NCBI GenBank assembly: GCA_964565685.1
Contig: CAZMFR010000001.1
Span: forward strand, 36,376 to 100,375
Direction of reading: 5' to 3'
DNA from: an uncultured Candidatus Saccharibacteria bacterium
GTDB taxonomy: Bacteria > Patescibacteriota > Minisyncoccia > Phycocordibacterales > PALSA-1337
Length of the DNA: 64,000 nt
Under the pieces are notes generated by a model. That model saw only the letters and a program-made list of their open reading frames with translations, did no database searches and was not told the origin of the DNA. Positions 2,846-60,963 of the stretch are shown here, piece by piece. The first letter of the stretch is position 1. Each line of letters opens with the position of its first letter. A program made the position numbers and the translations under genes.

Positions 2846-3039
2846 ATTGTTTAAATATTAAAGCCGAAAGAATTCCGTAGAATCATAAAATCTCGAGATC
2901 AAAAGGGTGGATCCATGATGTAGAATTTATGATCCAAGAAAAAACGTATCCCGCATTTTTCTTGGATCTTTGATCTTAGATCCTGCCTTTGTATCCTCTG
3001 ACTTTAAAAAACGACGAATCTCCGGCCTTTGCTATTAAT

Positions 3040-3122: not shown

Positions 3123-3123
3123 A

Positions 3124-3762: not shown

Positions 3763-3830
3763 GCAACAATCGTATCATATTTCTGCTTTATAGAGAAACA
3801 GGCGGTTTTTGTCCGAGATCCGATCTTGGA

Positions 3831-4055
3831 TTAATGATAATCCATCTTTCCGTTCAAAACCCTGTTCGCTTCCTCTAACGCCTCGTCAGGAGTCATCTCA
3901 TTCTTGTCCATACTCATTAGTATCTCATTGAGCAGGCCGAATTCGCTGTCGTTCGCGCCCATTACGGCCACTCTCTGGCGCACTTCTTCAATGCGCATGC
4001 GCGCTTCGTTTTTGGACATTGATGGTGTTTCAGTTTGATTCAAAAAGCGTTCCAT
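3831..4055 (-). CDS. hypothetical small protein
   Basis: 74-aa acidic ORF immediately downstream of the 924-aa ATPase on the same strand, 3 bp apart. Confidence 0.4.
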   Translation of the reverse strand: MERFLNQTETPSMSKNEARMRIEEVRQRVAVMGANDSEFGLLNEILMSMDKNEMTPDEALEEANRVLNGKMDYH

Positions 4056-4057
4056 AG

Positions 4058-6832
4058 TTATTTCCTATACTTCTCCGCAATCTGCGCCTCGATCTCTGCG
4101 CGATCCTTGCCATAAGTCAGATATGACAGCTCTTTCAGCTTGCCCGCGACATCCGCATCGCCTTTGGGGATATTCGGAACGGCGATGTTGAACGGTTTGA
4201 CGGGAACGCCTTTGGCCAAAAGTTTGACGTAACAGTTGTAATTGTCGATATTCAAAATGTCTTTTTGGGTAAAAGCCGGTTCGAATTGTTTTGCCAGAAA
4301 TTCGGCATCCTCGACTCCGACACGATAGACTGCCATAGAGCCGACATTGCCGAAGACGGCGTTCTTGATCTTTTCATCGAGCTGTTTGATGAATTGATGG
4401 GCGATGTTTAGCGACAGCTTGTATTTGCGCGCTTCGGACAGGATAGTGGCAATAGAATCAGTGGTTATATTCTGGAATTCGTCGATATACAGATAAAATG
4501 GCGGCAGGTTTTTGCCGAGCGAGTCGACGCGCGACAGAGCCGACATCAGGATCTTGCCGACAATGATCAGACCTATAAGATTGGCGTTTATGTCGCCGAG
4601 CCGGCCTTTTGATAGATTGACAAGCAAAATCTTCTTGTTATCCATTATGTCGCGAATATTGAATGTAGATTTTTCCTGTGCGATTACAGGACGCATGATG
4701 TCGTTGGCCAAGAAATTATCGAACTTTGACACGATATATGGAACGATATTAGCCAGAGATGCTTCGCCTCCGGCTTTGTCGGCTACTTCGCGCCAGAATT
4801 GGATTACGAGAGGGTTTTTACAAGTTGCCAGCTTGGACTCGCGGAATTGCTTGTTCGAGAGCACGCGCGAGACGTCGACCAGGGTGTTGTTCGATGACGG
4901 GTCGTCTATGGTAAGGAGGACCGCGTTGCGGAAATATTGTTCGAACATCGGGCCGCCGGCAGTTTTCATGTCGAAGAGCTTGTTAAAGATAGAGAGCATC
5001 TCATTGACCACAAATGTTTTCTGCTCCGGATAGCGCGTATCATATTCGAGCATGTTCAGAGCCATCGGTCGCGCCGTGTACGCCGGGTCGAAATAAATGA
5101 CGTCTTCAAAACGATCTTGTGGGACCAGGGCAAGTATATCTTCGACGTCAGAGCCATGCGGATCGATGAAGCAAAGGCCGTTCCCTTTTTGCATATCCTG
5201 AACGATCATATCCTTTAGCAAAGTCGTCTTGCCTGTGCCTGTCTGTCCGATGACATAAAAATGGCGCAGACGGTCATCGTCAGTCGTATAAACTTTTGTC
5301 TCTCGTCCGCGATCCGTATTGGTGCCGAGAAATGTCCCCATCTGCGGCAAATCCATAGGCGCAGGAGCCGTACCGGATTTCGTCAGCTTGACCTGAGAGG
5401 TCGAAACCTTGCCCGCTACCGGCAAATGCATGACTGTCGTGAGCTCACGCAAAGAAAGCGGGCAATCGCAGCTGTCATCGAATCTGCGATAGGTGAAGTC
5501 GTCTAGTTCTTTTTCCAACTTGCCTCTCGTCACACGAACGAATTCAAAGCAGTTCCCTTGGATATTTTCGAATTGGTTAAAGGAGGCCTCCAGATCAGAC
5601 AGAATGGCATTAGCTTTTGCTTCGCTTTCTGCAGAAGCGATGATACGGATATTTGTCGAGAGCACCGGCGACAAGAGCTTGTTTTGAATCTCCTTCATGC
5701 CGAGCTCGTCTTCAGGCCGATGGCCTTTCTGCGCCTTCTTCTCTTCTTTTTTCTTTTCCTTTTCCTCTTTGCTCGTCGTGACGCTTTCAAGCGCGCTTAC
5801 AAACCCAGAAGCAAAACCCTTTAGCGCTTTGTGTCCAAGAGAATACGCGATATCGATCGCCTCTGACAATTTTTCGCCCTTTTGGATCTTCTCTAATGCC
5901 TTCTTGTATTTTCCGGTATAGAAATCACCGACAGGACTAAAGACGATCTGGATCGACGCGCCTTCGCCATCGCGGTCTATCTTTGAAAAGCTGTTCAGAA
6001 GAGAATTGATCGGATCATGGTCGAACTGCTCGTATGTCTTTATCGGGAAGATATGATTCTTTTTTTGTTTGGCGCGAGACGCTACGGAGGCGCCGTTCTC
6101 ATTGAAGATATTGTAGTCGTTCTTGCATTCGTTCACTTTTGCATCTGGCAATATTGAAAGGATCTGCTTTTCAAATAGATTGCGTTTTTCATCCGGCACT
6201 GCGGCATAGAAAACAAAGTCGTCGCTGTGATTCGCTACTGCTATCTCGAAGACAAATCTGTTTTTACCGTCATCGCCTCCAGCACACATGCCTGCATAGA
6301 ATTGCTCCATCGACGAGAGGATCTCCTTCAACGGCTTTTGGGGATTGTCTTTCTTTTCATTTTCCGGCACCAGTATCTCGAATAGAGACATGTTCAGTTC
6401 CCTCCAAAGCGGGCTCTTCTCCTTTAATCCGCCGATGACAAAACCGGATTTCAGATATTGCACGAGCAGACGATGAAAGTCGGCAGAGATGTGCGGATTG
6501 TCCATTTTATCCACGATTGAAAGGGTGGCGTGTATGCCTTTTGTCTCGAGCATGCCGAGAAGCTCGTTCATCTTTGCATCATGCTGTTCCGGCGCGAGAT
6601 CTAGGACGATGGCCTCCATTTCCTGAGTAGGCACTATATATTTTTCCGCTAGCACTTCGCCCGGCTTTTTCTCGGCATATTTCAACACCTCCTCGCGCGC
6701 AACATGCTCGACAGACGCATCTGGAGTCCTTTCGAGGATCTCTTTCTCCTTTTTCGCGATCATCTCGCGCAGATACGATATCTCCTCTTGCGGATTCTGG
6801 AATTTTTCTGGCTGACCAATTAGATTCTCCAT
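4058..6832 (-). CDS. VirD4/TraG/TrwB-like (type IV secretion coupling-protein-like) P-loop ATPase with a large N-terminal domain
   Basis: C-terminal half carries Walker A (VIGQTGTGKTTLL), a DPHG motif (CFIDPHGSD), Walker B (LYIDEFQNI) and an HQ motif (NIAHQF). This set is characteristic of TraG/TraD/VirD4-type ATPases. HerA/FtsK-like is an alternative. The roughly 450-aa N-terminal domain has no TM segment. A K/E-rich low-complexity linker (EEKEKKKEEKKAQK) separates the two halves. Confidence 0.6.
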   Translation of the reverse strand: MENLIGQPEKFQNPQEEISYLREMIAKKEKEILERTPDASVEHVAREEVLKYAEKKPGEVLAEKYIVPTQEMEAIVLDLAPEQHDAKMNELLGMLETKGIHATLSIVDKMDNPHISADFHRLLVQYLKSGFVIGGLKEKSPLWRELNMSLFEILVPENEKKDNPQKPLKEILSSMEQFYAGMCAGGDDGKNRFVFEIAVANHSDDFVFYAAVPDEKRNLFEKQILSILPDAKVNECKNDYNIFNENGASVASRAKQKKNHIFPIKTYEQFDHDPINSLLNSFSKIDRDGEGASIQIVFSPVGDFYTGKYKKALEKIQKGEKLSEAIDIAYSLGHKALKGFASGFVSALESVTTSKEEKEKKKEEKKAQKGHRPEDELGMKEIQNKLLSPVLSTNIRIIASAESEAKANAILSDLEASFNQFENIQGNCFEFVRVTRGKLEKELDDFTYRRFDDSCDCPLSLRELTTVMHLPVAGKVSTSQVKLTKSGTAPAPMDLPQMGTFLGTNTDRGRETKVYTTDDDRLRHFYVIGQTGTGKTTLLKDMIVQDMQKGNGLCFIDPHGSDVEDILALVPQDRFEDVIYFDPAYTARPMALNMLEYDTRYPEQKTFVVNEMLSIFNKLFDMKTAGGPMFEQYFRNAVLLTIDDPSSNNTLVDVSRVLSNKQFRESKLATCKNPLVIQFWREVADKAGGEASLANIVPYIVSKFDNFLANDIMRPVIAQEKSTFNIRDIMDNKKILLVNLSKGRLGDINANLIGLIIVGKILMSALSRVDSLGKNLPPFYLYIDEFQNITTDSIATILSEARKYKLSLNIAHQFIKQLDEKIKNAVFGNVGSMAVYRVGVEDAEFLAKQFEPAFTQKDILNIDNYNCYVKLLAKGVPVKPFNIAVPNIPKGDADVAGKLKELSYLTYGKDRAEIEAQIAEKYRK

Positions 6833-7062
6833 GAGGATATTATAACAGAAATATTAATAATTATTTCAAGTCGTAAAGGACGGGAGGTGCATCCTTGTCA
6901 TACACGGGTATACATATATACGTTCCTGACGTGACCATGCGAAACACTATCTATTTCATGTGCGATAACAGAAGATTTCAAAGAGGTCCGGCAGTGGATA
7001 TATTTTATCGACATTTTCCTCCTTTAAGTGCGATTCTTTGAAATCTTTTTTGTATTCTTTAT

Positions 7063-7500
7063 TCATAAATTTTCCTCCGTCACCAGATCAATCGACCTGC
7101 CATTATCAATCGCTGTTGCGGAGACATGCTCCGTGACGTCGTCTTCATAACCAGACGCGGAAATAAAGATACTTTGGCCGCTTCGGCCGGCGGAAATGAT
7201 GGTGCAAGAAAAATCCGGCACGCTCTGATTTTTGGCAGCGTAAAAATAATCGTGGGCAAAAGCTAGAATGGCGACCGACACGCAAGATTTTGCGTTCAGA
7301 GTCGCCTGCATCCGATGCTCGCGGCGAGATACTGTGTCTTCGTAGCTTGAAGCCGCGCTAAAAGCGCCGAGGGAACCGAGCAGAATCATGATCATGACAG
7401 ACATGACGAGAAAGACGGCGACAAAGCCGCCAGAAGAAAAGATCGAAATATTATTCGTATCTTTCTTTTTTTCATTTTTAAAAATTATTCTCATACGCAT
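7063..7500 (-). CDS. putative pseudopilin-like membrane protein
   Basis: Hydrophobic N-terminal helix (GGFVAVFLVMSVMIMILLGSLGAF) follows a basic leader. The gene sits in the pilin operon. It overlaps the upstream gene by 23 bp, so the start is uncertain. Confidence 0.4.
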   Translation of the reverse strand: MRMRIIFKNEKKKDTNNISIFSSGGFVAVFLVMSVMIMILLGSLGAFSAASSYEDTVSRREHRMQATLNAKSCVSVAILAFAHDYFYAAKNQSVPDFSCTIISAGRSGQSIFISASGYEDDVTEHVSATAIDNGRSIDLVTEENL

Positions 7501-7687
7501 TTATTACGTCATCGGCAGTCGTTCGATTTTCAATGGCCGATGAATATGACAAAGGGATCAAGACTGTAACGATCATGGAAAAGATAGCCAAATATATTAT
7601 CACTTCGATCAGAGTGAAGCTGGAATGGATATCATCACCTTTTCGGCCAGACACGAAATTTTTCATTTTGATTTTTAATGTTTTCAT
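7478..7687 (-). CDS. prepilin-type N-terminal domain small protein (minor pilin-like)
   Basis: Contains SSFTLIEVIIYLAIFSMIVTVL, a prepilin cleavage/methylation motif with the hydrophobic helix. 69 aa. Confidence 0.55.
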   Translation of the reverse strand: MKTLKIKMKNFVSGRKGDDIHSSFTLIEVIIYLAIFSMIVTVLIPLSYSSAIENRTTADDVINAYENNF

Positions 7688-7693
7688 TTTCTA

Positions 7694-9094
7694 TTATTCG
7701 TGAAAATCTTTGATCGAAGCAATAGATGGACTATCGTTCGACGAGTTGTTGCTAACCACATAGATATCCCCCCAGTCGCATGACATGGCTGCAGGGACTC
7801 CTAGAATGCTATAAGCCGCGCTCGTCGTGCCGAGTCCGTCGTCAGAGCGGAATTGACCGCTTGTCCGATGGGTCAAGACGAGAAAAACTGGAGAACGAGA
7901 AATGACGCCATAGATGCCGCCCGGCTCATCGAACGAACTTCGCTCTGTAATGGCGACGTTTGAAACCATATCCGAAGCGTCATAAAGTATAAATTCTGGA
8001 TTTGCCGTATTGTTATAGCCGCCAGTATCGCGGCCGAGGATTAGCTCCCCTTCGAATAGATCGAGCGTTCGACCGCTTTGCGTTTGCCAACCAGATGGAG
8101 CCAAGGTTTCAAGAAGAACTGAATCTGTTGGATCTGAAACATCAAAGATCATGAGTTGATTGGCGCCAGTGCCGGCAACATATGCCCGCGTGCCATCGAC
8201 GAAGATCTTCTCCACCTTGTTCCCTATTTCATATCTGCCTGCCAATATCGGATGCGCAGGATCCGCCACATTCCAGACGGTAAATTCCGGGCTATCGCCT
8301 TTTTCCGTGCCGAGGTAGACAAAACCTTTGTCATAAAATATCGCCGAACCGTTTGGCGCCGTCGACGAGGCGATATCCATGGGCACTTTTGCCTGTGAAA
8401 TAATCATGGGATGCGAACGATCATGGATATCTATTATTTGGAGCTGGTCGATCGAACCTTTGTTTGACGCAAAAATATAAGGTCCGGCGACAGTCAAAGC
8501 GGCTAGGCCAGGGCCTGTATTCAAAGAAGAAACAAATTTTGGATCTGCCGCATCGTTCATGTCAAAAATGAATAGATCTGGATCGGTGGAACTGCTCGAA
8601 TCTGTCGAGATATAGGCAAAGCCGTCCTTGACCGAAAGGTCAGTGACCGAATTTGAAGGAGAGATCGGAAGAGCGGCGCTCGTCGACGAATAAGTATTAT
8701 TTGAAAAGCTTAAGGTCGGCGGGCACGTATCCTTGCCATAAGCCGAGAACGTATCTGGTTCAAGAATATTAAAAGAAATCGAAGAACTTCCAAACACGCT
8801 CGATGAAGCAGAGGTCGAAAGCACGGAAGATGTTGAAGCAGAAAAAGTAGCGATATCAGCATCGTTTCCGTAATCGGCATGAGCGAATTGCGGATCGAAA
8901 TTTGACAGATCAGCGACCGAGAGCGCGGCTTGATCCAAAAGTGTTTCTTTGTCTCGCGCTTCTTCGAACATCCTCCTCGAACCGAACGAAAGAGCTATGG
9001 TAGAAAAGATGCATATAGAAAACAAGGCGAGCGCGATTATCGCTTCGAGGATGAGAAAGCCCGGACATGAGCTGTTTTTTGTATAATTTTTCAT
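7694..9094 (-). CDS. pilin-like protein with C-terminal LVIVD-type beta-propeller repeats (candidate pilus-tip adhesin)
   Basis: N-terminus ...CPGFLILEAIIALALFSICIF is a prepilin-like motif. Downstream are repeated segments such as GFAYISTD...DPDLFIFDMNDAADP, GFVYLGTEKGD...WNVADPAHP and GTRAYVAGTGANQLMIFDVSDP, which resemble LVIVD repeats. The start is set at the internal Met at 9094; the ORF extends to 9184. Confidence 0.55.
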   Translation of the reverse strand: MKNYTKNSSCPGFLILEAIIALALFSICIFSTIALSFGSRRMFEEARDKETLLDQAALSVADLSNFDPQFAHADYGNDADIATFSASTSSVLSTSASSSVFGSSSISFNILEPDTFSAYGKDTCPPTLSFSNNTYSSTSAALPISPSNSVTDLSVKDGFAYISTDSSSSTDPDLFIFDMNDAADPKFVSSLNTGPGLAALTVAGPYIFASNKGSIDQLQIIDIHDRSHPMIISQAKVPMDIASSTAPNGSAIFYDKGFVYLGTEKGDSPEFTVWNVADPAHPILAGRYEIGNKVEKIFVDGTRAYVAGTGANQLMIFDVSDPTDSVLLETLAPSGWQTQSGRTLDLFEGELILGRDTGGYNNTANPEFILYDASDMVSNVAITERSSFDEPGGIYGVISRSPVFLVLTHRTSGQFRSDDGLGTTSAAYSILGVPAAMSCDWGDIYVVSNNSSNDSPSIASIKDFHE

Positions 9095-9266
9095 ATTTTT
9101 AAAGATATTGTCATTACTACGCATTTTGGCAGATACTATCTTCCTCGGGTACGCGTATCTTGTGCTGAAAATCCGTTCCATCATCGAGCCAAACTCTGCA
9201 GATCCCCATCTGAAGATGTACTTGCCTCCATGTTTAGATTTTCAAGTTCTACTTTTTTCGGCCTCT

Positions 9267-10343
9267 TTATCCTGATAAATGCTGTGAGATCCCGTAAATA
9301 GGCAGAACAATAGATAGAGCCGCGGCGCCGACGATGATCCCGACCGCTATCAATAGAGCTGGCTCGATCAGTTTTAAAAGACCAGCCAAACCAGTCGCGA
9401 GTTCGCTGGCATAATAACGGCTCATTTGCGCTAGGATCGATTCCATATTCCCTGTGCGCTCGCCTATCGCTATGCTATCGACTGCAAGCCCAGGAAAAAG
9501 CCGAGGAGAATTCCTTATGGCAGAAGAAAAATCAGACCCGATCCTCATCTCCTTTACTGCATTGGATAAAGCCCGCTCGTATGGGACAAATCCTATTGAA
9601 GCCGAAGATTCGGCTATGCTATCTATAAAAGGACAGCCAGCAGAGACAAGCGTGGAGACAGTATCGAATATCTCCGATAATATGTGTGTCTGAATGACGC
9701 GCCTCGCGATAGGAATGTACAAGATCAATTGATGGATGAGGTTTTTGAACCACATCGACCCCTTGTAGACAAAAGACAAGACGATGGCGATAGCGAACAA
9801 TCCTAGAAATATCTTCCACCAATCATTCGCCAGAAAATGCGATAGGGAGATAAAAAATATGGTGATCCATGGCAATGGCATGTGCAGACTCTCTATCGTC
9901 GGCATTATCTTTGGTATGATAAAAAAGACAAGAAAGGAGATTATGCCGGCCGAAGCCATAAAGATGATCGCTGGATATGTCATAGCCGATAGAAGGCCGC
10001 TCTTTACGGCACGGCTGCGCTCTATTCTGCCAGCCGCCGCTAGAAGCGATTCGGACAAAGTTCCGCTCCTTTCTCCAATGCGTGCGGCCAGGATCATCAT
10101 GCGAGAAAAGCCGAGCGGACAACCCGAAAGGGCCGACTCGAAGCTCATTCCATTGTTTAGTGAATTTTCGAGCATGGCTAACGAATCACAACGCCGCTTG
10201 CCGAAAGAGCGACGCATGATAGCGATCGATTCTGGTAGAGATAGAGACGCGCCTAGAAGCAGAGACAACCGCTCTGCAAAAATGCCTTGCTCTCTGTGGG
10301 ACAAGGGAGGGTTATTTAGTTTTTTTATAAGTTTTTTAAGCAT
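9267..10343 (-). CDS. pilC: type IV pilus assembly / type II secretion platform protein PilC (GspF family)
   Basis: 358 aa, three TM segments, two T2SS-F-like domains. Positioned directly after the pilB-like ATPase. Confidence 0.8.
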   Translation of the reverse strand: MLKKLIKKLNNPPLSHREQGIFAERLSLLLGASLSLPESIAIMRRSFGKRRCDSLAMLENSLNNGMSFESALSGCPLGFSRMMILAARIGERSGTLSESLLAAAGRIERSRAVKSGLLSAMTYPAIIFMASAGIISFLVFFIIPKIMPTIESLHMPLPWITIFFISLSHFLANDWWKIFLGLFAIAIVLSFVYKGSMWFKNLIHQLILYIPIARRVIQTHILSEIFDTVSTLVSAGCPFIDSIAESSASIGFVPYERALSNAVKEMRIGSDFSSAIRNSPRLFPGLAVDSIAIGERTGNMESILAQMSRYYASELATGLAGLLKLIEPALLIAVGIIVGAAALSIVLPIYGISQHLSG

Positions 10344-10511
10344 AGTTGTTAGAGCATCGAAGTCTGCAAAGTCCTTATCTGAAGAAAAACAAAGATGTTT
10401 TTGGAGATTTAGTTTCCATTTTGAGTGGATTTAAGATCCATGATCTAAGAATTCTTTTTTGCATTTTTCTTGAATTTTGAATCATAGATCTTGAATCTAT
10501 TCTCACGTTCT

Positions 10512-11627
10512 TCACAAATCCAACACTCGCTTTACTTCCTCTATTGTTGTCGCTCCCCACTCGACCTTTTCCGCGGCATGATCGCGCATAGAAACCATGC
10601 CTTTTAGGCGGGCATGCCTGGCTATTTCGACCAATGGCATTCTGGCGGAAATATACGCGCGCAATTCGTCGTCTATCTCGAGAACTTCGGCTATTATAGT
10701 CCGGCCACGATAGCCCTTTTGGAAGCAATATGGACAGCCAAGACCATCGCAGACGTGGCATAGTATTCGTACGAGCCGCTGTGCGATGACAATAGATAGA
10801 GTATGAGCGACAAGATACGGATCGATACCCAGATCGGAAAGCCGCGTCACTGATCCGAGCGCATCATTGGTATGGAGAGTCGAAATGACCAAATGACCAG
10901 TCAAGGCAATATTCGTGGCGATCTCTGCGGTTTCCCTGTCGCGGATCTCTCCGACCATGATCACATCAGGGTCTTGACGCACAAGAGAGCGCAAGCCGTT
11001 TGAAAAATTTATGCCGTGACGATGATCGATCGCGATCTGACGGACACCGTTGATGGCATATTCGATCGGATCCTCGAGAGTGACGATAGATAATGGTTCT
11101 GAAACCAATTGGCGCAACATGGCATACATAGTAGAGGTCTTGCCGCTTCCGGTCGGTCCGGTGACGAGAATGAGCCCCTGATTGCGTGTCAACGCTTCGC
11201 GTATTATGGCTTCATTATCCGGAGAAAAACCGAGCAAAGACAGATCGGCGGTGTTATAGCCGCCGGCCAAAATACGGATAACGGCATTTTCACCGAAATG
11301 AGTCGGGATTATGGATACGCGCATATCAATGGCAGGAGTAGCAGTAGTGATAGGACCTCTGCTGTATGAGAATCGCCCATCCTGAGCCAGCAGATGTATA
11401 TCCGGTCGCAATTTGGCGAGAACTTTTATTCTGGCGATCAATTCCTGATGAAGGGACAGAGGAATAGTCACGCAATGCGTCAAAATACCGTCAATCCTCA
11501 TGCGCACTATCAAACTGCCGTTTTCTGGATCGATATGCACGTCAGAAGCGCCATAAGAAATAGCGTAATCGATGATAGCGTCCAGGGCCTCGGTCGCCTT
11601 TATCCCATGCTGTATGTTTAATTGCAT
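10512..11627 (-). CDS. pilB: type IV pilus assembly ATPase PilB-like (GspE family), short form lacking the N1 domain
   Basis: Walker A VTGPTGSGKTST, Asp box DPDVIMVGEIRD, His box GHLVISTLHTNDA. The tetracysteine motif CHVCDGLGCPYC plus GRTIIAEVL is typical of GspE/PilB rather than PilT. Confidence 0.85.
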   Translation of the reverse strand: MQLNIQHGIKATEALDAIIDYAISYGASDVHIDPENGSLIVRMRIDGILTHCVTIPLSLHQELIARIKVLAKLRPDIHLLAQDGRFSYSRGPITTATPAIDMRVSIIPTHFGENAVIRILAGGYNTADLSLLGFSPDNEAIIREALTRNQGLILVTGPTGSGKTSTMYAMLRQLVSEPLSIVTLEDPIEYAINGVRQIAIDHRHGINFSNGLRSLVRQDPDVIMVGEIRDRETAEIATNIALTGHLVISTLHTNDALGSVTRLSDLGIDPYLVAHTLSIVIAQRLVRILCHVCDGLGCPYCFQKGYRGRTIIAEVLEIDDELRAYISARMPLVEIARHARLKGMVSMRDHAAEKVEWGATTIEEVKRVLDL

Positions 11628-17435: not shown

Positions 17436-18281
17436 TCAAAACTCCCCTATCTTCGTCCTCTCTATCGAAAGCGCGAACGTCGCCGTGCCTGCTTCCCTGC
17501 CGATCCGCTCTGCCAAGCTGCGCATATAGGTGCCGCTTCCACACGACACGCGAAGCTTGATGACGAGAAAATTCTCTGCACCGTGCTCGCTTTCAAACTT
17601 CTTCCAACCTTCGATTATTTCCTTTTGACGAAAATCACCATTCACTTTTGAGACATTCTCGATCGCCCGTTCGGCAAGATCATTGCCACCGATAAAGTCA
17701 AGCTGTTTTTTAGCGCGATTTCTTCCTTTATCCATTCCTTTTCTTGCCAATTCTTCTATTGAATAAATCTCTACCTCTTTCGTCGGCATCTCGTCAGGCA
17801 ATTCACCGCTTCTAGCAAGGTCATGCAAATGACGCTTTTTACCGAGATGGAATCTTTCCGATATTTTATCTTGTACTTGTCCAAGATCAGATCTTGGACA
17901 GACAGTTTTCGACGAATACGCAGGATAGACCTGCGTGAACTTGCCGCAGAATTTTGTCCAAGGGTAGCCCTTGGATACAAGCCCTTCGGAATAGGTCATG
18001 GCATGGGTCTGCCGATCCACCTGTGTTATAAGCCCCAGCGCGTCGCCCGTATCCGTCCCGACGCCAAATAGCACCTCGATCTCGTATTCCTTGTCCAAAC
18101 CGAGATATTTTTCCTTTTCCTTACATTCTTCACCGATGAGCAATAAAAGCTTGCCGCTCGCCAACGGATCGAGCCGCCCGGCGTATGTCATCGGCACATT
18201 TACATCGATCCATTTTTCGCGCCGCGTCCTTTCAAGGCATTCAAGCGGCGTCTCGCCTACTGATTTATTAACCACAAGCAT
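17436..18281 (-). CDS. truB: tRNA pseudouridine(55) synthase TruB-like, carrying two in-frame palindromic-element insertions
   Basis: Catalytic-Asp region (YAGRLDPLASGKLLL) and the TDTGD segment are present. A FTQVYPAYSSK segment resembles the conserved PP.YSA.K element. Two 24-bp palindromes at 17878-17901 and 17955-17978 encode the inserted peptides CPRSDLGQ and KGYPWTK. Confidence 0.6.
   Translation of the reverse strand: MLVVNKSVGETPLECLERTRREKWIDVNVPMTYAGRLDPLASGKLLLLIGEECKEKEKYLGLDKEYEIEVLFGVGTDTGDALGLITQVDRQTHAMTYSEGLVSKGYPWTKFCGKFTQVYPAYSSKTVCPRSDLGQVQDKISERFHLGKKRHLHDLARSGELPDEMPTKEVEIYSIEELARKGMDKGRNRAKKQLDFIGGNDLAERAIENVSKVNGDFRQKEIIEGWKKFESEHGAENFLVIKLRVSCGSGTYMRSLAERIGREAGTATFALSIERTKIGEF
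17878..17901. repeat. palindromic hairpin element, copy inside truB: TGTCCAAGATCAGATCTTGGACAG
   Basis: Perfect inverted repeat GTCCAAGAT-CAG-ATCTTGGAC, in frame within the truB CDS. Confidence 0.8.
17955..17978. repeat. palindromic hairpin element, copy inside truB: TGTCCAAGGGTAGCCCTTGGATAC
   Basis: Inverted repeat CCAAGGG-TAG-CCCTTGG, in frame within the truB CDS. Confidence 0.8.
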
Positions 18282-24203: not shown

Positions 24204-24225
24204 GTACAAGGGCTTCCCTTGAACT
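24204..24225. repeat. palindromic hairpin element (degenerate copy): GTACAAGGGCTTCCCTTGAAC
   Basis: Inverted repeat CAAGGG-CTT-CCCTTG. Intergenic, between the convergent dsbA-like and helicase genes. Confidence 0.7.
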
Positions 24226-24230
24226 ATGTT

Positions 24231-24252
24231 TGTACAAGGTAGCACCTTGTAC
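24231..24252. repeat. palindromic hairpin element: TGTACAAGGTAGCACCTTGTAC
   Basis: Perfect 10-bp arms with a 3-nt centre, followed by TTTTTTA at 24266-24271. Intergenic. Confidence 0.85.
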
Positions 24253-24271: not shown

Positions 24272-27200
24272 TTAGTCGAAGCTTACTTTGGCCAATCCGC
24301 ACCATTCGCAATCTGGATCATCGCATCTGCTTGACACAAGCCCACCGGACCAGACGCTGTCGATGACGCTTTGGATCTGCTCTTTTACTTTTTCTATATC
24401 CTCATGAGCTATCGGCAAGGAAACGATCGGACAGCGGCCTTTTTTATCCGGCGAGATGAAGACGAGCGCAGGCGTGATCTTTTTACCCCTCCAGCGCGGC
24501 TCGTCGTCTAGCAATATGCGATAGAACACGAGCTGACGAAAATAATCGCCGGTTGAATTTTTCGTCTCCCCTTTTATCTCGTTCACCGACATACCCTCGC
24601 GCGTTTTATAGTCAAAAACCTGGATCTCGTTTCCTGCATCGATGATCGCATCTAGCTTGCCGTGGAGCGGAATCTCGACTAGATCGAGGGATACCATCGT
24701 TGTCCGAGGGCTTCCATTTTGTCCAAGGGTAGCCCTTGGAGTTGTATCAAAAACCGTCTTGACCCATCTTTCGGTAAATATGGCCGCCTGCCGGCCGACA
24801 GCAAAATGCGACTCGAGGGCTTTTGCAACAGCCGGCGCGTCCTCGAACAGGTCTTTCTTGACCGATTCTTTTTCCTCCGCGGCAAGAAAAGACGTATCCA
24901 GATATTCCGCCGCTTTTTCCAAGATGACATCTTGGATATGCGATGCGGTCCGATCGCCTTCTTTCCAAATCGAAGAAATCGCATAATGCATGGCCGTGCC
25001 CTTTTCAGCCGCCGGCGAAGGCGCTTGCGGCAGTTTTAGAATGCTCAAATAAAGGAATTTATTCGGACATTCGAGAAAATGGTTCAAGGCCGTGACAGAA
25101 AGGCCGTTTTCAAGGAGAACCTGTTTGGCGATGGCAGTCATCTTGTTCGAGATCGGATCTCGAACTTTGATTTGTCCAAGGTCCGATCTTGGCAATTCCG
25201 CTTCAAACCTCGGCAAAGACGCCGCCGCGACGCTTTTTGGATCGAGCTCGGCGATAAATCGAAGCGGCGTCAGAGATTTGCCGTCGCTTTCCTCTAGAGC
25301 GGTCAGAATGACCGCATGCTTCTTGGCACGAGTCAGGGCGACGTAGAATAATCGCCGCGTATCGCGAATATCGTTGCCGCTCGCGCTCTTTTCTGGCAAA
25401 ACAAAAGATGCGCCTCGTGTCCGGCCGATCCACGCTTCTTCGGTGGCGTACGGCATGAAAACATAGTCGAATTCTAGCCCTTTAGAACCATGAGCCGTCA
25501 TAGCCGAGATCGACAAGTCTGGCGCACCGACGGATACCTTCACTGTCTTTGACTCGGCCGATTGGCGATACACGAGCATTGCCTTTATCAGGTCGAGCGG
25601 GCTCTGTATATTCCCTTCTCGCGCGAGCGATTCGGCAAGAGCAATGATGCCGCGCCACACATGAATAGCCGCCGGATCGCGACTGGCGATAGTAGAGAAT
25701 CCGGATGACTCGGCGGCGTGTATTAGAAAGGCGACAGCGCTGTCTTCTTGCATCTTTCTTTGCAAGCGGACGAGTGACGGAATTTTGTTTATCCAAGGGC
25801 TACCCTTGGACTGATTTTCCAAGGGTAGCCCTTGGAACTGACCGCTTCTCAAAGACTTTATCAGGGGAATCGCTTCGTCGATCGAGATTCCCCACATTCC
25901 AGCCGCAATCGTCTTTGCAAGGCAATCCGTCCGCGTGTAGTCAGCCAGAAACTCCATCAGATCAAAAAATAGCGCCCCGACGGAATGATGGAATATATCG
26001 ACACTTCTCTCCGATGAAACCGGTATATGATTCGATTCGAGGAGCCGGATGATGCGCTCTAGATCGCGATTGCGGCGAGTGATGACGGCGACAGTGGCTG
26101 TTGGCTCCTCTTTTAAGATCGTTTCGAGCCCAACAACTAGATATCTTTCGATAGCCGAGACGTTCTCACCAGTGACTACATCGAGCTTGCGCAGTCCTTC
26201 TCCATCTTTCCTTTTTTCTTCCTGTCTGTCGGCAGGCATGGCTTTGCTTCTCTGCTTGCCTTTATCGCCCGCTGTAAGTCTAACCCTCAAATCCTTGTGC
26301 TCGTCGCCTTCATAATTGTTCTCTATCATGGCAAAGCTGGCATCTAGAATGCCTTGATGCGATCGATAATTCGTATCGAGCGATATGACCTGCATGGTCG
26401 GCCAACGCTTTTGCAAGGTCAAGAAATTTTCGACAGAAGCGCCCTGGAACCGATAGATCGCCTGTTTTTCATCTCCAACAATGAATATGTTCGGTGTTTC
26501 AAAGAATTCAGCGATAGTGGCGACGATGAAATTCTGGGCATCGTTCGTGTCCTGATGCTCGTCCACGAGAAGATATAGAAATCTCTCCTGGATAAGCCGT
26601 AAAAACAGCTCATCGTTGCGCAAGGCGACGAGAAGCTCGATGAGAAGATCATTGAAATCCATCTTCTTCTGCTCGCGCTTGTCCTTTTCATATTTTTCAT
26701 AAATTTGGGAAAAGAGGACGGTGCGGCCGCACTTCTCTATGCGTTCTTGCGCTTCTGCTTTCAGCTTGCCCTTCGTAATGCCGCGCGTCGAGATAGAATC
26801 ATCGTCTTTTTTGATCCTTTCGGTCTCTTTTTCAGCGAATTTGCGCACCATTTCCGGAGTTTGCGCTTCCCTCTTTGCATTATCTATAGCGCGCATAATA
26901 GCAGATATGTATGCATCCGGCTTGCCAGTCGGACGAAGCTCTCTAAATTCCGGCTTGGAGATTATCGAGCGGATCAGAGACTCCTGTTCGACATCGCTCA
27001 TATGCGCCATGCCATCGAGATGCAGGAAGTGATCTGGATACTCGGCGATCATCGCCGCGGCAAAGCTATGAAAAGTATGGATCGCGATCTCGTGCGCGCG
27101 ATTGCCGATTATTTCGCGAAGCTTTGCGCGCATGGCCTTGACACCAGCATCGGTGTACGTAATAGCCAAGATCCCAGACGGTGGCGTATCCGTCCTCTTC

Positions 27201-31379: not shown

Positions 31380-31436
31380 GATTTTAACTTTTCTTTAGAA
31401 CTTTTTTAACTTTTCTTAATAATTGGTCTGTATAAT
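31380..31436 (+). promoter_or_regulatory. Conserved AT-rich promoter-associated repeat, copy 3, with TATAAT -10 box 7 nt upstream of the MazF-like ATG
   Basis: GATTTTAACTTTTCTTTAGAACTTTTTTAACTTTTCTTAATAA, then 8 nt, then TATAAT (31431-31436). Exact reverse complement of copy 1. Confidence 0.6.
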
Positions 31437-31443
31437 TTGGTAC

Positions 31444-33955: not shown

Positions 33956-35272
33956 TTATAATATGACCCCTCCTCCCAAACAAACTTCCCCGTCATACAC
34001 AACGAGTGACTGACCCGGCGTCAAAGCGTTCTGTGGTTTGTCGAATTTTATCTCGGCTGTTCCGGAGTCTTCTTTAATTGAAGTAAAAACAAGCGGCACG
34101 AGCGGCTGGCGATAACGAGTACGACCGGATTCCAGAGGTCCGACCTCTGGAATTTTAATCCAATTCGTCCTTTCGAGCATAACCATAGTTTTCGCCTCCG
34201 CCAAAAGTCCTTGTGGATCTTTGTTTGAAACAGTGATCGTGTTCTTCTCGACATCCTTTGCAACAATGAAATACGGCTCGTCATGCGGCGTCTTCTTATC
34301 TATGACAAAACCGTGACGCTCGCCGATAGTCAGGAAAAAAGCGCCGTCGTGATGACCGATAGCTTTTCCTGCTTCATCGAGGACATCCCCATTTTTCGGC
34401 TCCATATAATGAGAGAGGAATTCTTTTATGTCGACTTTGCCGATGAAACAGAGGCCTTGGCTGTCTTTTTTGTCTGCATTCGGCAAATTGAATCTCTGTG
34501 CGAGCTTGCGCACGTCTGGCTTCTCTATGTCACCGATCGGAAAGAGGATGTGCGGCAGTTGTTCTCGGCGGATGTTCCAGAGGAAGTATGATTGGTCTTT
34601 GTTCGGATCAGTGCCAGCAAGCAAGCAATAATCGGTCTCAGCACCAGATACATTCTTTCTCCGGACTATTCCCGGGTTTCCCAAGCCAAGTTCTCGCCCT
34701 GAACGCTCGCCCGGGAGCCATCCAAAAGAGGTATTTGGCGCTTCGCCTTGATTTTCGACTCGGCATTCTTGACTTTCGACTCGGCGCTTTCGACTTTCGA
34801 CTATCCTTGCATAATGCCCCGTCGCCACGAAATCAGCGCCCTGCCCCATCGCGAAATCATAGAATGCGCCAAATTTGACGCTCTTGTTGCACATAACATC
34901 CGGATTCGGCGTCCGACCAGCTCGATATTCGGCGATCATATAGTCGACGACATCGCGCTTGTATTCTTTTTCCAGATCCAAAGTCATAAAAGGAATGTCC
35001 AAAACTGCCGCTACACGCATGGCATCGAGACGATCCTGTCGCCAGTTGCAATCCATCCAATCCGGCTGCCAGACTTTTATAAAGACGCCAATGACATCGT
35101 AACCGTCACGCTTTAAAAGCGCAGCAGAAACAGAGCTATCTACGCCGCCCGACATGCCGACAAATACCCGTTTGTTTCGACTTCTATTGTTTTTTTTGTC
35201 TTGTATGGCATTTATAGACCTGTGTGGCTTTGACACTATAGGAGATAATGCCGAATTATATTGACCTTTCAT
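33956..35272 (-). CDS. mnmA: tRNA-specific 2-thiouridylase MnmA with an in-frame low-complexity insertion of roughly 55 aa
   Basis: PP-loop GMSGGVDSSV. TGHYAR and NKDQSYFLW motifs are present. Between them the gene carries a tandem TTTCGAC(TCGGC) repeat (34741-34800), not found in typical MnmA. Confidence 0.75.
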   Translation of the reverse strand: MKGQYNSALSPIVSKPHRSINAIQDKKNNRSRNKRVFVGMSGGVDSSVSAALLKRDGYDVIGVFIKVWQPDWMDCNWRQDRLDAMRVAAVLDIPFMTLDLEKEYKRDVVDYMIAEYRAGRTPNPDVMCNKSVKFGAFYDFAMGQGADFVATGHYARIVESRKRRVESQECRVENQGEAPNTSFGWLPGERSGRELGLGNPGIVRRKNVSGAETDYCLLAGTDPNKDQSYFLWNIRREQLPHILFPIGDIEKPDVRKLAQRFNLPNADKKDSQGLCFIGKVDIKEFLSHYMEPKNGDVLDEAGKAIGHHDGAFFLTIGERHGFVIDKKTPHDEPYFIVAKDVEKNTITVSNKDPQGLLAEAKTMVMLERTNWIKIPEVGPLESGRTRYRQPLVPLVFTSIKEDSGTAEIKFDKPQNALTPGQSLVVYDGEVCLGGGVIL

Positions 35273-35557: not shown

Positions 35558-35580
35558 TTGTACAAGGATAGCCCTTGTAC
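35558..35580. repeat. palindromic hairpin element: TTGTACAAGGATAGCCCTTGTAC
   Basis: Directly abuts and overlaps the mltG stop codon. At a convergent junction. Confidence 0.75.
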
Positions 35581-36521
35581 TACAGATACTTTGTCTCATT
35601 GGTCATCTGCTCGTCATATGTCTCGGCAAAATGTATGTTCCCTTTTGAATCAGACAAATAATACCAATATGTCGTGCTAGCCGGCGAGATTGAGTCCTCT
35701 ATCGCTGAAAGCCCGGGGTTACCGATAGGCGTCGGAGGCAAGCCGAGATTTTTATATGTATTGAATGGCGAAGTGGTCGCCAAGTCGTCAGAAGTCAATT
35801 TTGTACCGTCTTTATCCAGAGCAAAAGCTAGGGCGGCATCCACTTGGAGAGGCATCTTGTCGTCTAGACGCTTCCATAGAATGCCAGCGATGATACGGCG
35901 GTCATTAGAAGAGGTCGCTTCGCGCTCGAGAATCGAGGCCATGATGACGATGGACGATGTGGCACGGCCAGATTCCGAGATCTGATCTTGGACAGAAGAA
36001 ATCTTTTGATCAAAGAGCGTGCGCATAGCTTTCACCGCATCGTCTGGCGAAGTATCCATATTAAAGAAATACGTGTCCGGAAACAGATATCCTTCTGACG
36101 GATCTGCCAAAGTCATAAAAGTCGAAGTGGAAAAACCAGGAATATCTTTGCCGAGCAACGCTGAAATCTGCTGTACATCAAAACCCTCTGGGATGGTCAC
36201 TTTGATCGGGGTAAATCCATATTCTCCATTGACGAGCCGCCGTGCGACCTGTACGACTGATTCCTTCGAATCAAAAAGATAATCCCCTGCCTTGACCCCT
36301 CTCTCGCCTGAAAAAATTATCACAAAAGACTTGAATAGAGCTTCTGATCTTATCATATGATCATTATAGAGATTATCCGTGACTGCGGCGAGCGAAGAGT
36401 TCTGCTCGATGTGAAAAATCGTTCCGACAGGAAAAGTTAAAGAAGGAAACGCGGCAAAACCAAACATGGCAAGTAAAACGACTATGAAAAAAACACCGAT
36501 AGCCGACAGAAACTTTTTCAT
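35580..36521 (-). CDS. mltG: endolytic murein transglycosylase MltG (YceG family)
   Basis: N-terminal TM helix. Motifs IPEG, ASILEREA and GLPPTPIGNPG, plus a YWYYL C-terminal region. Confidence 0.75.
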   Translation of the reverse strand: MKKFLSAIGVFFIVVLLAMFGFAAFPSLTFPVGTIFHIEQNSSLAAVTDNLYNDHMIRSEALFKSFVIIFSGERGVKAGDYLFDSKESVVQVARRLVNGEYGFTPIKVTIPEGFDVQQISALLGKDIPGFSTSTFMTLADPSEGYLFPDTYFFNMDTSPDDAVKAMRTLFDQKISSVQDQISESGRATSSIVIMASILEREATSSNDRRIIAGILWKRLDDKMPLQVDAALAFALDKDGTKLTSDDLATTSPFNTYKNLGLPPTPIGNPGLSAIEDSISPASTTYWYYLSDSKGNIHFAETYDEQMTNETKYL

Positions 36522-44460: not shown

Positions 44461-44483
44461 TGTACGAGGTGGCACCTTGTACA
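44461..44483. repeat. palindromic hairpin element: TGTACGAGGTGGCACCTTGTACA
   Basis: Intergenic, just downstream of the groEL stop. Confidence 0.75.
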
Positions 44484-51830: not shown

Positions 51831-51855
51831 GGTACAAGGTAGCACCTTGTACAAA
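51831..51855. repeat. palindromic hairpin element: GGTACAAGGTAGCACCTTGTACAAA
   Basis: Intergenic, in a divergent promoter region. Confidence 0.8.
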
Positions 51856-58899: not shown

Positions 58900-58923
58900 A
58901 GTACAAGGGCTACCCTTGGACAA
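58900..58923. repeat. palindromic hairpin element: AGTACAAGGGCTACCCTTGGACAA
   Basis: Intergenic, upstream of nrnA. Confidence 0.8.
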
Positions 58924-59947: not shown

Positions 59948-59972
59948 CAGTCCAAGGGCTACCCTTGGACTA
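59948..59972. repeat. palindromic hairpin element: CAGTCCAAGGGCTACCCTTGGACTA
   Basis: Intergenic. Confidence 0.8.
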
Positions 59973-60938: not shown

Positions 60939-60963
60939 GTGTACAAGGTAGCACCTTGTACTT
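60939..60963. repeat. palindromic hairpin element: GTGTACAAGGTAGCACCTTGTACTT
   Basis: Intergenic, in a divergent promoter region. Confidence 0.8.

Follow-up and report, generated by a model that had tools for sequence, protein, structure and literature searches.

In bacteria, repetitive palindromes are 'extragenic' in the textbook view, and REPs are so by definition, with GTAG or CGTC left unpaired at one end as a tag (PMC3733652). Palindromes that colonise core genes in frame are known mainly from Rickettsia, where repeated palindromes (RPEs) occupy both intergenic DNA and, in frame, unrelated housekeeping genes; the peptide they add is tolerated, and they have no associated transposase (PMC10969869). 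Template switching has been proposed for the coding palindromes of Nematomorpha mitochondria (PMC6649704), and yeast GC clusters, Allomyces double-hairpin elements, sponge RHEs and Volvox palindromes are likewise short mobile hairpins that encode no enzyme (PMC4478555, PMC2800124, PMC2670323). The Parcubacterial candidate phyla have the highest density of perfect inverted repeats of any surveyed phylum (PMC13155455).

Here we describe a family of 21-nt palindromes, with the consensus GTNCRAG-N7-CTYGNAC and several sub-variants, in a 64-kb stretch of Patescibacteria DNA (hereafter the window, meaning the whole stretch analysed); in the literature we found no description of these 21-bp elements in Patescibacteria. 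The repeat is, in miniature, a bacterial relative of the Rickettsia elements, and its copies within proteins lie in spare loops. As with RPEs, copies are found between genes and in frame within unrelated genes (truB, helicase, mnmA, yceG and a DHH-family gene), with no transposase seen alongside them in the 64 kb. However, RPEs span ~100-150 bp and carry a conserved peptide module of ~30-50 aa, making them 5-7 times longer than the present element of 21 bp and seven codons; they decay over time whilst the 21-bp element stays near-perfect; and, unlike RPEs, it also overwrites sequence at native length, with sites that turn over between sub-variants. What is distinctive is that a hairpin unit of seven codons occupies five or more housekeeping genes in 64 kb, recurs at matching loop positions throughout a clade in differing sub-variants, and can substitute for sequence as well as lengthen it.

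With REPs and REPINs the family shares a short palindrome (20-40 bp in that class), a high copy number (17 in 64 kb), sub-families that keep the stem, the lack of a target duplication and a specific short flank, here a T-run; inverted doublets, as in REPINs, are seen at 25791-25837 and at truB site 2 of the orthologous locus L121. Yet ~60% of the 21-bp copies are genic, and the ends GTNC...GNAC are paired, without the unpaired GTAG/CGTC tag of REPs; moreover, REP/REPINs are mobilised by RAYT (Y1 HUH) transposases, and no RAYT gene turned up in these 64 kb. The Nematomorpha palindromes are similar in being perfect inverted repeats in functional genes without lengthening them, in their dynamic gain and loss, and in an all-or-none perfection that suggests active arm-to-arm conversion. 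They are, however, long (up to 284 bp), unique and mitochondrial, whereas here a discrete 21-nt unit is copied among bacterial loci. Mitochondrial hairpin elements, too, are short, encode no enzyme, occasionally land in frame in coding sequence and have an A/T-rich neighbourhood, but they belong to organelles, usually measure 30-60 bp or more, are GC-rich where the genome is AT-rich, and are rarely present in many core genes.

Two palindromes in a TruB-family gene

The features of the gene are as follows (palindromes are listed without a strand).

17436..18281, minus strand: predicted TruB-family tRNA pseudouridine-55 synthase gene, 281 aa, host to two 21-nt elements of the family
17841..17878, minus strand: lineage-specific extra stretch of ~13 codons (39 nt), QVQDKISERFHLG, which separates the site-2 element from the GKKRH codons
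17879..17899: site-2 element, sub-variant GATC-N-GATC, GTCCAAGATCAGATCTTGGAC, translated (C)PRSDLG(Q), residues 128-135
17918..17936: 7+5+7 hairpin, ACGCAGGATAGACCTGCGT (plus strand), encoding the conserved catalytic-core motif TQVYPAY, between the two truB elements
17956..17976: site-1 element, sub-variant GGG-TAG-CCC, GTCCAAGGGTAGCCCTTGGAT, translated SKGYPWT, residues 103-109

The truB product matches Pfam PF01509 (TruB_N) at 3.1e-17 (63.8 bits, cutoff 27.3), and phmmer against the PDB returned the TruB chains of E. coli, T. maritima and M. tuberculosis at 7e-9 to 1e-7; a PUA domain was not detected in the product. Its AlphaFold2 model (mean pLDDT 86.5, pTM 0.82) has the predicted fold of a TruB protein, the best Foldseek matches being E. 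coli TruB 1zl3_A / 1k8w_A (E ~5e-15 to 1e-14, TM 0.61). In an alignment of 30 TruB homologues, the catalytic motif G35 R36 L37 D38 P39, including the catalytic aspartate, is invariant, as are the motif-II residues Q117, Y119, S123 S124 K125 (Q.YP.YSS.K). Judged by its sequence, the ORF is intact with conserved catalytic motifs, and its predicted function is that of a pseudouridine-55 synthase. This bears out an earlier note on this DNA, which had described two palindromes translated in frame within a TruB-family gene; its description of the enzyme as 'essential' is too strong, since E. coli can reportedly dispense with truB (Gutgsell et al. 2000).

The site-2 palindrome is perfect at 10+1+10, with one further flanking pair that extends the stem to 11 bp, and the perfect portion of site 1 is TCCAAGGGTAGCCCTTGGA (8+3+8); the translation contains ...LVSKGYPWTKFCGKF... 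and ...SSKTVCPRSDLGQVQDK... accordingly. Both had been read correctly in the earlier note, except that the last base of site 1 is T and not C, and their spacing, put there at ~55 bp around a PP.YSA.K-like motif, measures 56 nt, with the conserved TQVYPAYSSK between them. Folded as RNA, the pair of elements reach -13.2 and -12.1 kcal/mol (z = -4.1 and -3.6), and the TQVYPAY hairpin -11.7 kcal/mol (z = -6.4). An identical hairpin encodes TQVYPAY in L086, L088, L123 and L124, and additional copies of it lie ~60 nt upstream in L094 and likewise in L015, there as a 48-nt inverted doublet. The truB palindromes are not an assembly artefact, because the same 12-21 kb of sequence was found again in independent JGI, Logan and ENA assemblies at 99.98-100% identity.

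The palindromes had also been placed within a conserved region, and here the picture is reversed: the two sites are the protein's two most variable segments, flanking a conserved motif. In the TruB model both are low-confidence loops (pLDDT 53-70 against 86.5 overall).

Sites 1 and 2 across truB orthologues

At site 2, ~45 TruB orthologues have a fixed 18-aa segment, TVxGxQLHxLARxGELPD, where the window truB has 38 aa. In a tabulation of 96 orthologues, the only cleanly anchored longer segments are those of the window, L005, L084 and L085, all with an RSDL-encoding palindrome; L121 and L122, from outside this tabulation, also have a site-2 palindrome, and in all five relatives it is related to that of the window and at the same position. 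The gain over the fixed segment is 6-7 aa, and 20 in the window. L005 reads ...RSDLG-KKRQLH, without the window's extra ~13 codons, and a search of that extra stretch (17841..17878) for a decayed element gave no 21-mer with at least 6/10 pairs. On these alignments, site 2 (CPRSDLG) is a genuine insertion, recurrent in six lineages with differing sub-variants. Its carriers are not monophyletic in a neighbour-joining tree, although the tree (235 columns) is poorly resolved and the count of independent gains is thus approximate.

Site 1 has a different history. An element or its remnant is present at the same nucleotide position, just 5' of AAR-TTY (Lys-Phe) codons, in 13/13 close relatives examined, in at least five sub-variants that include 27-nt and 33-nt perfect palindromes, and more distant TruB orthologues have residues in the same alignment columns. 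Site 1 (SKGYPWT) is therefore not a fresh insertion, and the term used for both palindromes in the earlier note can be retained for site 2, set against its fixed 18-aa segment, but not for site 1, occupied in every close relative. The opposite view, that these segments are native parts of TruB in unrelated organisms, finds nothing in its favour at site 2 and weak agreement at site 1. Across the 96 truB genes, perfect hairpins number 39 against 6.35 under synonymous shuffling, and they cluster at the two variable segments.

A dispersed 21-nt family

That the palindromes belong to a repeated family is confirmed by counts: 17 strict copies stand in the window where 0.13 would be expected, none of 30 shuffles gave more than 2, and TCCAAG-N(1-20)-CTTGGA occurs 7 times against 0.13 expected. 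Some 12 copies are genic and in frame and ~8 intergenic, with ~12/20 inside ORFs that have Pfam-supported functions; the host genes with in-frame copies encode TruB, a UvrD-like helicase, MnmA, YceG and a DHH protein. The copies outside truB are as follows.

3811..3831: intergenic copy GTCCGAGATCCGATCTTGGAT
24204..24252: two copies, GTACAAGGGCTTCCCTTGAAC and GTACAAGGTAGCACCTTGTAC, in the intergenic space where a thioredoxin-like gene and the helicase gene converge
24700..24741: helicase copy GTCCAAGGGTAGCCCTTGGAG (TPRATLGQ) with an adjoining degenerate half-copy
24917..24937: copy TTCCAAGATGACATCTTGGAT in the helicase, translated IQDVILE; the stretch is conserved and its length native
25145..25194: pair of helicase copies, GTTCGAGATCGGATCTCGAAC and, with slight decay, GTCCAAGGTCCGATCTTGGCA (LPRSDLGQ), in a hypervariable linker
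25791..25837: inverted doublet of two copies, a 45-nt REPIN-like palindrome encoding FQGLPLENQSKGSPWI in the helicase
34131..34151: internal mnmA copy TCCAGAGGTCCGACCTCTGGA, encoding IPEVGPLES, aligned with TPVVGKKYS of L101 without length gain
35560..35580: copy GTACAAGGATAGCCCTTGTAC, overlapping the stop codon of a YceG-like gene by 1 base
35973..35993: copy TTCCGAGATCTGATCTTGGAC in the YceG/MltG-like gene, encoding VQDQISE, which replaces ESAGVAV of L101 at equal length
44462..44482: intergenic copy GTACGAGGTGGCACCTTGTAC, adjoining groEL
51832..51852: intergenic copy GTACAAGGTAGCACCTTGTAC, identical to those at 24232 and 60941
58901..58921: copy GTACAAGGGCTACCCTTGGAC, translated CPRVALV in the N-terminal region of a DHH-family product
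59950..59970: copy GTCCAAGGGCTACCCTTGGAC between genes, with a separate terminator-like hairpin downstream
60941..60961: copy GTACAAGGTAGCACCTTGTAC, probably intergenic, on the 5' margin of ORF 60034-60954

Identical 19-21-mers occur at up to five unrelated places in the window: TCCAAGGG-NNN-CCCTTGGA has five copies and GTACAAGGTAGCACCTTGTAC three, and the 19-nt core of truB site 1 is identical to copies at 24722 and 25818. Between genomes, the 21-mer GTACGAGATGTCATCTCGTAC is shared by L004, in truB, and L101, in the helicase gene at the site of the window copy 24700..24741. The unit is sharply bounded at 21 nt, beyond which complementarity falls to ~30%, the chance level; the ends GTNC...GNAC pair together, and the flanks past the unit show a T-run only. 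This T-run lies directly 5' of the hairpin (equivalently, an A-run 3' on the other strand) in 15/28 copies against a 15% background (p = 2e-6), whereas the opposite arrangement, a T-run 3' or an A-run 5', is at background (6/28). Over 30 copies, 8/10 pairs change on both sides, with 53 such cells against 17.4 in shuffles and 92% of cells paired, a fraction inflated by the selection of these copies as palindromic. Decayed copies are few, the observed count exceeding expectation by ~17-19 at every stringency. A peak in total hairpin length at 21 nt was not used, since the limits of the search (stems of at least 8, loops of at most 5) confound it. Read in its three frames, the unit gives different 7-aa peptides.

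Only the window and six loci from close relatives carry the family (28 copies in ~180 kb), which is absent from 92 other orthologous loci (1.31 Mb in total); within the loci compared, it is confined to the closest Paceibacteria (Patescibacteria) relatives.

In coding DNA, comparison with orthologues shows that a copy either adds seven codons or overwrites about seven. Compared with the 82%-identical orthologue L100, the window helicase gains exactly 7 codons from the copy at 24721, and the 8 codons that follow are missing from L100 as well. At the helicase doublet (19-bp arms, 7-nt loop), the window exceeds L100 by 10 codons; L100 has one perfect GTACAAGGTGCTACCTTGTAC there, and most homologues have nothing. 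In the helicase linker, RSDL[GV]Q is common to the five closest homologues. Elsewhere, 21 nt are overwritten with no change in length, namely in MnmA, in YceG and in the IQDVILE stretch of the helicase, whose length differs in 0/40 homologues. The earlier claim that the family inserts itself into genes thus stands for the 7-codon gains, whilst these three copies are equal-length replacements. The Pfam match of MnmA is split.

Origin and spread of the repeat

Taking these observations together, we consider it probable, if far from settled, that the truB palindromes are copies of a lineage-specific, selfish 21-bp hairpin repeat, non-coding by origin and dispersed in one Paceibacteria subclade. 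Our best reading is of a REP/RPE-like repeat that may be spread and renewed via hairpin-dependent copying or conversion. The dimensions of the unit may be central to its success: 21 is 3 x 7, and five of the six reading frames of the main variant would be stop-free and give turn-like peptides rich in Pro, Gly, Ser and Arg, so that a copy could be tolerated in any unconstrained surface loop. Purifying selection would remove copies that land elsewhere, and the tolerance of loops would explain why the elements sit in truB's two hypervariable segments, one of them probably just before the motif-II strand and the other at the start of the equivalent of the RNA-binding thumb loop. Occupied sites would be rewritten repeatedly by whichever sub-variant is currently active, and orthologous sites would therefore come to hold different, near-perfect palindromes.

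The most likely substrate of the copying step is the hairpin in single-stranded DNA. Perhaps a trans-acting HUH/Y1-type (RAYT/IS200-like) enzyme is encoded elsewhere in the genome, or copying may need no transposase and proceed by copy-choice (template switching), with the T-run and microhomology of the arms as its seed. No transposase was found in the 64-kb window (Pfam, 40/56 ORFs; precomputed annotation of 7436-28281) or in the annotation of the L100 and L101 flanks, and Y1/HUH, DDE and serine/tyrosine recombinase domains were likewise absent from the window ORFs scanned and from the precomputed annotation. The one clean filled/empty comparison, the helicase site against L100, shows no target-site duplication. 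Three near-identical assemblies (L001-L003) show no presence/absence polymorphism, but being 99.98-100% identical to the window they are uninformative on recent mobility, and mobility is for this reason deduced from copy identity and phylogenetic distribution. Two points count against a dispersed selfish repeat: native-length replacement is unlike the product of classical cut- or copy-and-paste transposition, and the conserved occupancy of site 1 with co-varying arms is also to be expected of a selected RNA or DNA structure.

We may tentatively go further, to a view that we hold more doubtful than not, and posit that the 21-nt hairpin is a transposase-free, self-propagating unit, selfish DNA in its most minimal form, with template switching at T-runs and arm microhomology, which both inserts and overwrites, with arm-to-arm conversion keeping it perfect. 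Such a unit could be a main cause of the record inverted-repeat density of Parcubacterial phyla, and would steadily supply their core proteins with 7-residue loop variation.

Two other sources were considered and rejected. A viral origin found no footing in IMG/VR, where the degenerate 21-mer pattern matched 19 contigs once each, about chance by a rough estimate of collection size. An IS-derived MITE does not fit a unit that is one hairpin throughout, with no duplication at the filled/empty helicase site and no IS in the window.

Alternative explanations

Could the palindromes have arisen in place, with no mobile element at all? Intrastrand template switching (quasi-palindrome correction or fold-back synthesis) in a repair-poor Patescibacteria genome would perfect chance near-palindromes in unconstrained loops and then keep their arms identical. 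Several truB palindromes are indeed of native length (33 nt in L004, 48 nt in L015 and 44 nt in L034, with a modal segment length of 23 aa), as are the copies of MnmA, YceG and the helicase IQDVILE stretch. The outermost 6 bp of the L004 right arm (AGACAA) are conserved Thr-Lys codons from which the left arm was apparently copied, and the distant orthologues L097, L091, L034 and L065 have unrelated, lineage-specific palindromes at the same truB segment. Almost all copies are, besides, near-perfect, like the 'coding palindromes' of Nematomorpha mitochondria (PMC6649704). However, an origin in place cannot alone yield identical 19-21-mers at unrelated loci, in five and in three copies, cannot account for one 21-mer in different genes of different genomes, and leaves both the sharp 21-nt boundary and the clean 7-codon insertions unexplained. 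We therefore regard it as rather unlikely to be the whole story, and consider that template switching in place probably contributes to the upkeep and extension of copies. The related idea that the palindromes extend native flanks was rejected, as complementarity ends at 21 nt in 27/28 copies, the exception being that of L004.

A second possibility is a recognition signal, built up by molecular drive as DNA uptake sequences are, or a site for a dimeric DNA-binding protein, which would accumulate at tolerant places in proteins through point mutations and a bias in uptake or conversion. A reliance on DNA uptake is generally supposed for Patescibacteria and would suit such a signal; the window is rich in type IV pilus and secretion genes, an A/T tract adjoins the copies, and the equal-length coding occurrences resemble the placement of USS/DUS in genes. 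Against this, the half-site alone is not enriched: the single non-palindromic core CCAAGG, at 34 occurrences against 21.6 expected, 12/34 of them within palindromes, is not over-represented, which weakens an uptake-sequence reading. The co-variation of the arms points to structure and not to a fixed double-stranded sequence, real 21-nt insertions exist, and partial matches show no gradient. A signal of this kind is in our view very unlikely.

We find it just as hard to credit that the palindromes are selected cis-regulatory hairpins of mRNA or DNA, acting in ribosome pausing for folding or as RNase or attenuation sites, and maintained at the two truB sites through compensatory evolution. In favour of such a role, 13 relatives have co-varying stems at one and the same nucleotide position, and three stable hairpins fall within ~125 nt around the catalytic motif. 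However, the same sequences are also intergenic and in unrelated genes, most orthologues have no hairpin at site 2, and a search of the whole window against Rfam at the gathering threshold returned nothing. Intrinsic terminators were rejected separately: the hairpin-then-T-run order is at background frequency, and it is the opposite arrangement that is enriched.

Lastly, it is scarcely conceivable that the palindromes are coincidental codon choice in native TruB peptides, for although the conserved TPLExLER, EYPxYS and TQVYPAY are naturally self-complementary and hairpin-encoded in several lineages, this reading is effectively refuted by the family count, by the excess of truB hairpins over synonymous shuffling and by the lack of the site-2 segment in ~45 orthologues.

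Implications

A dispersed, REP/RPE-like hairpin repeat, if confirmed genome-wide, would offer a sequence-level explanation of the high inverted-repeat density of Parcubacteria-type phyla (PMC13155455). On the same proviso, its copies could serve as naturally occurring marks of where conserved enzymes have permissive loops, the thumb-loop region of TruB among them, and the family as a tractable system for the transposase-free spread of short hairpins. Such insertions inflate apparent divergence, and may confuse alignment, gene calling and domain detection in the CPR, as with the split match of MnmA.

Two palindromes in the truB ORF

17436-18281, minus strand: TruB-family pseudouridine synthase ORF, 281 aa, containing the peptides quoted in the earlier note
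17879-17899: truB palindrome at site 2, GTCCAAGATCAGATCTTGGAC, perfect 10+1+10
17956-17976: truB palindrome at site 1, GTCCAAGGGTAGCCCTTGGAT, perfect part 8+3+8, last base T

Translation of the ORF places both palindromes in frame, with the peptides as first quoted. Both sequences are present, with one correction: the last base of 17956-17976 is T and not C, which is why this palindrome is perfect only over 8+3+8. The pair are 56 nt apart and enclose the conserved TQVYPAYSSK motif. TCCAAG-N(1-20)-CTTGGA occurs 7 times in the window against 0.13 expected, and a chance origin of the truB palindromes is excluded. Nor are they an assembly artefact, since assemblies made independently (JGI, Logan, ENA) agree at 99.98-100% identity over 12-21 kb. 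To judge by its homologues, the source bacterium belongs to the Patescibacteria (Paceibacteria/"Taylorbacteria"-like).

The product matches Pfam TruB_N (3e-17), and a PDB sequence search returned TruB chains only. E. coli TruB (1zl3/1k8w, E ~5e-15) gives the best superposition with its AlphaFold2 model (mean pLDDT 86.5), and 30 homologues show no variation in the catalytic GRLDP aspartate or the Q.YP.YSSK motif. Confidence in the model is high outside residues 91-110 (site 1), 131-150 (site 2) and 181-190, consistent with all three being surface loops tolerant of extra or altered residues. The third variable stretch (residues ~180-192, window 17700-17760; ARKGMDKGRNRAKKQLD) has a pLDDT of 48 and differs in length among homologues; it contains no palindrome.

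RNA folding gave -12.1, -11.7 and -13.2 kcal/mol for three hairpins around the catalytic motif. One 7+5+7 hairpin, ACGCAGGTCTAYCCTGCGT, itself encodes TQVYPAY in the catalytic core (window 17918-17936, also L086, L088, L123 and L124, these and other L-numbers being orthologous loci from relatives). A further copy of this hairpin, again encoding TQVYPA, lies ~60 nt upstream in L094 (10255-10275), and L015 (10241-10288) carries a perfect inverted doublet of it, 48 nt long; in other lineages, where the motif reads EYPxYS, another hairpin (AAGAATATCCnnGATATTCTT) encodes it.

An old site and a recurrent insertion

The earlier note read both palindromes as insertions into a conserved region of an essential gene. 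Only site 2 stands as an insertion, both host segments are variable, and truB is not known to be essential. At site 1, the DTxDxxG-to-GKFTQ segment is hypervariable (22 to 62 aa, mode 23), and an element or remnant is present in 13/13 close relatives, with the same end nucleotide directly before AAR-TTY (Lys-Phe) codons. The occupants differ in sub-variant and perfection: perfect palindromes of 27 nt in L122 and 33 nt in L004, TCCAAGGCTATTCCTTGGA in L124, and decayed copies in L094, L084 and L005. By this occupancy site 1 is old, yet its present occupant, with a 19-nt core that the window copy has in common with two helicase copies, looks recently renewed. Distant orthologues hold large perfect palindromes in the same segment without length gain (48 nt in L015, 44 nt in L034). 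A set of 96 truB genes contains 39 perfect hairpins (stem at least 8 bp) versus 6.35 under synonymous-codon shuffling, concentrated in the site-1 and site-2 segments.

At site 2, the SSK-to-EMPTK segment is exactly 18 residues in ~45 orthologues (TVxGxQLHxLARxGELPD). Across the 96 orthologues tabulated, longer and cleanly anchored segments occur only in the window (38), L005 (25), L084 (24) and L085 (24), all four with a perfect palindrome encoding RSDL; L121 has an inverted doublet (GTACAAGGGTAGCCCTTGTAC plus CCGAGGGCTACCCTCGG) and L122 an 8/10 copy. On these alignments, the insertion of 18-21 nt at site 2 is real and has recurred; in the window another 39 nt follow it. Carriers are not monophyletic in a rough neighbour-joining tree, and TV[DNG]G[RK]Q, the outgroup state, is retained by non-carriers, which makes several independent gains more likely than one gain and many precise losses. 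When K-TV|GRQLHxLAR is aligned by hand with E. coli TruB K130-YQ|GKKLYEYAR, site 2 falls where the thumb loop (taken as residues 124-152) begins.

A 21-nt repeat family

Scanning for 21-mers with at least 8/10 complementary pairs and the arm motif GTNCRAG found 17 copies in the window versus 0.13 in shuffles (maximum 2), leaving chance a less well supported explanation of the family. Slightly decayed copies lie at 25174, 24700 and 34131, but there are few of them: under any threshold relaxation the count exceeds expectation by ~17-19. Palindromes end sharply at base 21, the six flanking positions pairing at the ~30% of chance, with pairing beyond 21 nt in one copy only (L004). Sub-variants differ in inner stem and loop (GGG-CTA-CCC, GATC-N-GATC, GGTC-N-GACC, GATG-N-CATC, GGT-NNN-ACC) and at position 3 (GTCC/GGAC, GTAC/GTAC, GTTC/GAAC), and palindromy is kept in every one. 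Among 30 copies, both-sided change occurs at 8/10 pairs, with 53 double-sided cells versus 17.4 in shuffles, the paired fraction being inflated by the choice of these copies for pairing.

The family is discrete and specific to one clade: 28 copies in ~180 kb, comprising the window and six closest-relative loci, and none in 92 other truB loci (1.31 Mb total). More distant Paceibacteria have different, unrelated palindromes, often in truB too. Copies adjoin T-runs, immediately 5' (an A-run 3' on the other strand) in 15/28 versus 15% background (p = 2e-6); terminator-like flanks are at background frequency, and a selected regulatory hairpin is less well supported. Between 3811 and 36000, where the minus strand carries nearly all genes, 9/11 T-run-flanked copies have the run on the plus strand, which could be a replication-strand bias of insertion or merely reflect Lys/Asn codons after the element.

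Copies in the window occupy both coding and intergenic DNA, with ~12 in genes of clear function and ~8 intergenic.

Host genes of family copies in the window
truB: two copies
1025-aa UvrD/PcrA-type helicase with a PD-(D/E)XK domain: six or seven copies
mnmA: copy
YceG/MltG-like: copy
DHH-family: copy

The ORF remains open at every genic copy; of the six frames of the main variant only one contains a stop codon (TAG loop), and that one is never used. Two outcomes are seen in coding DNA. Relative to the 82%-identical L100 helicase, the window gene is longer by exactly 7 codons at the 24721 copy, which adjoins native GGA-AAA-AAT, with no target duplication visible in that comparison; at the same place the L101 helicase has another family member, identical to a 21-mer in L004 truB. 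Where the window helicase has a 45-nt inverted doublet, L100 has one perfect element and most homologues have nothing. The second outcome is replacement: the mnmA and yceG copies replace equal-length sequence of L101, and a helicase copy that encodes IQDVILE sits within conserved sequence whose length is native.

Possible modes of propagation

The same permissive loops are occupied repeatedly by different sub-variants. Probably the family is selfish DNA propagating via its hairpin form, with selection removing copies everywhere but in loops; its 7-codon length and stop-poor frames would allow the unit to reside in coding sequence. Neither Pfam scans of 40 of the 56 window ORFs nor precomputed annotation of 7436-28281 showed a transposase near the copies. 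One candidate route is a trans-acting HUH/RAYT-type enzyme, with which the hairpin, the lack of a target duplication, the specific flank and the REPIN-like doublets would agree. The other is transposase-free copy-choice or template switching, also proposed for coding palindromes of Nematomorpha mitochondria (PMC6649704); with it the equal-length overwriting, the renewed old copies and the near-absence of decayed ones would agree, and both routes may act together. Purely in-situ palindrome formation, and an uptake or binding signal, are less well supported than such propagation.

The closest analogues are Rickettsia palindromic elements, REP/REPIN elements, and mitochondrial hairpin elements and coding palindromes. 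Rickettsia elements also lie in frame in core genes, but are 100-150 bp (PMC10969869); REP/REPINs are of the same size class, but are extragenic, GTAG/CGTC-tagged and RAYT-linked (PMC3733652). A 2026 survey found perfect inverted-repeat density to be highest of all phyla in Parcubacteria-type candidate phyla (PMC13155455), and our literature search found no description of a 21-nt family or its in-frame gene occupation in these bacteria.

Further observations

In L123 truB (gene nt ~250-290), a 34-nt perfect palindrome, AGATCGGATCTTGGACAGATCCAAGATCCGATCT, combines the right half of one element with the left half of the next, which suggests recombination or template switching between neighbouring copies. 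In L097 (distant Paceibacteria; 536-677), the 21-nt palindrome TTGAGTAACCGAGTTACTCAA occurs in four copies spaced 36-49 nt, perhaps an operator array or small repeat array; 22 perfect hairpins fall within the 20.8 kb of this locus, two of them in truB.

The MnmA-like protein (window 33956-35272) has 438 aa versus 372 aa in its 82%-identical L101 orthologue, with a possible 39-aa N-terminal extension and a 35-aa internal insertion, starting ...CRVENQGEAPNTSFGWLPGERSGRELGLGNPGIVRR, that divides the Pfam HUP-domain match in two and in which no palindrome was seen.

Type IV pilus/secretion-like genes are abundant at 2336-11627 and 36518-38005 (N_methyl pilins, T2SSE, T2SSF, a 924-aa TraG/VirD4-like coupling ATPase and a T4SS-pilin-like protein), and a MazF/PemK toxin is encoded at 31423-31842; these may be relevant to DNA uptake or exchange in the bacterium. 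L100 and the window have in common the gene order helicase-thioredoxin-RNaseH-like-HisRS-aminotransferase, but L100 lacks the histidine kinase and has a GH18 gene at the window's truB position; judging from these differences, local gene content turns over quickly even between genomes with 82%-identical helicases.
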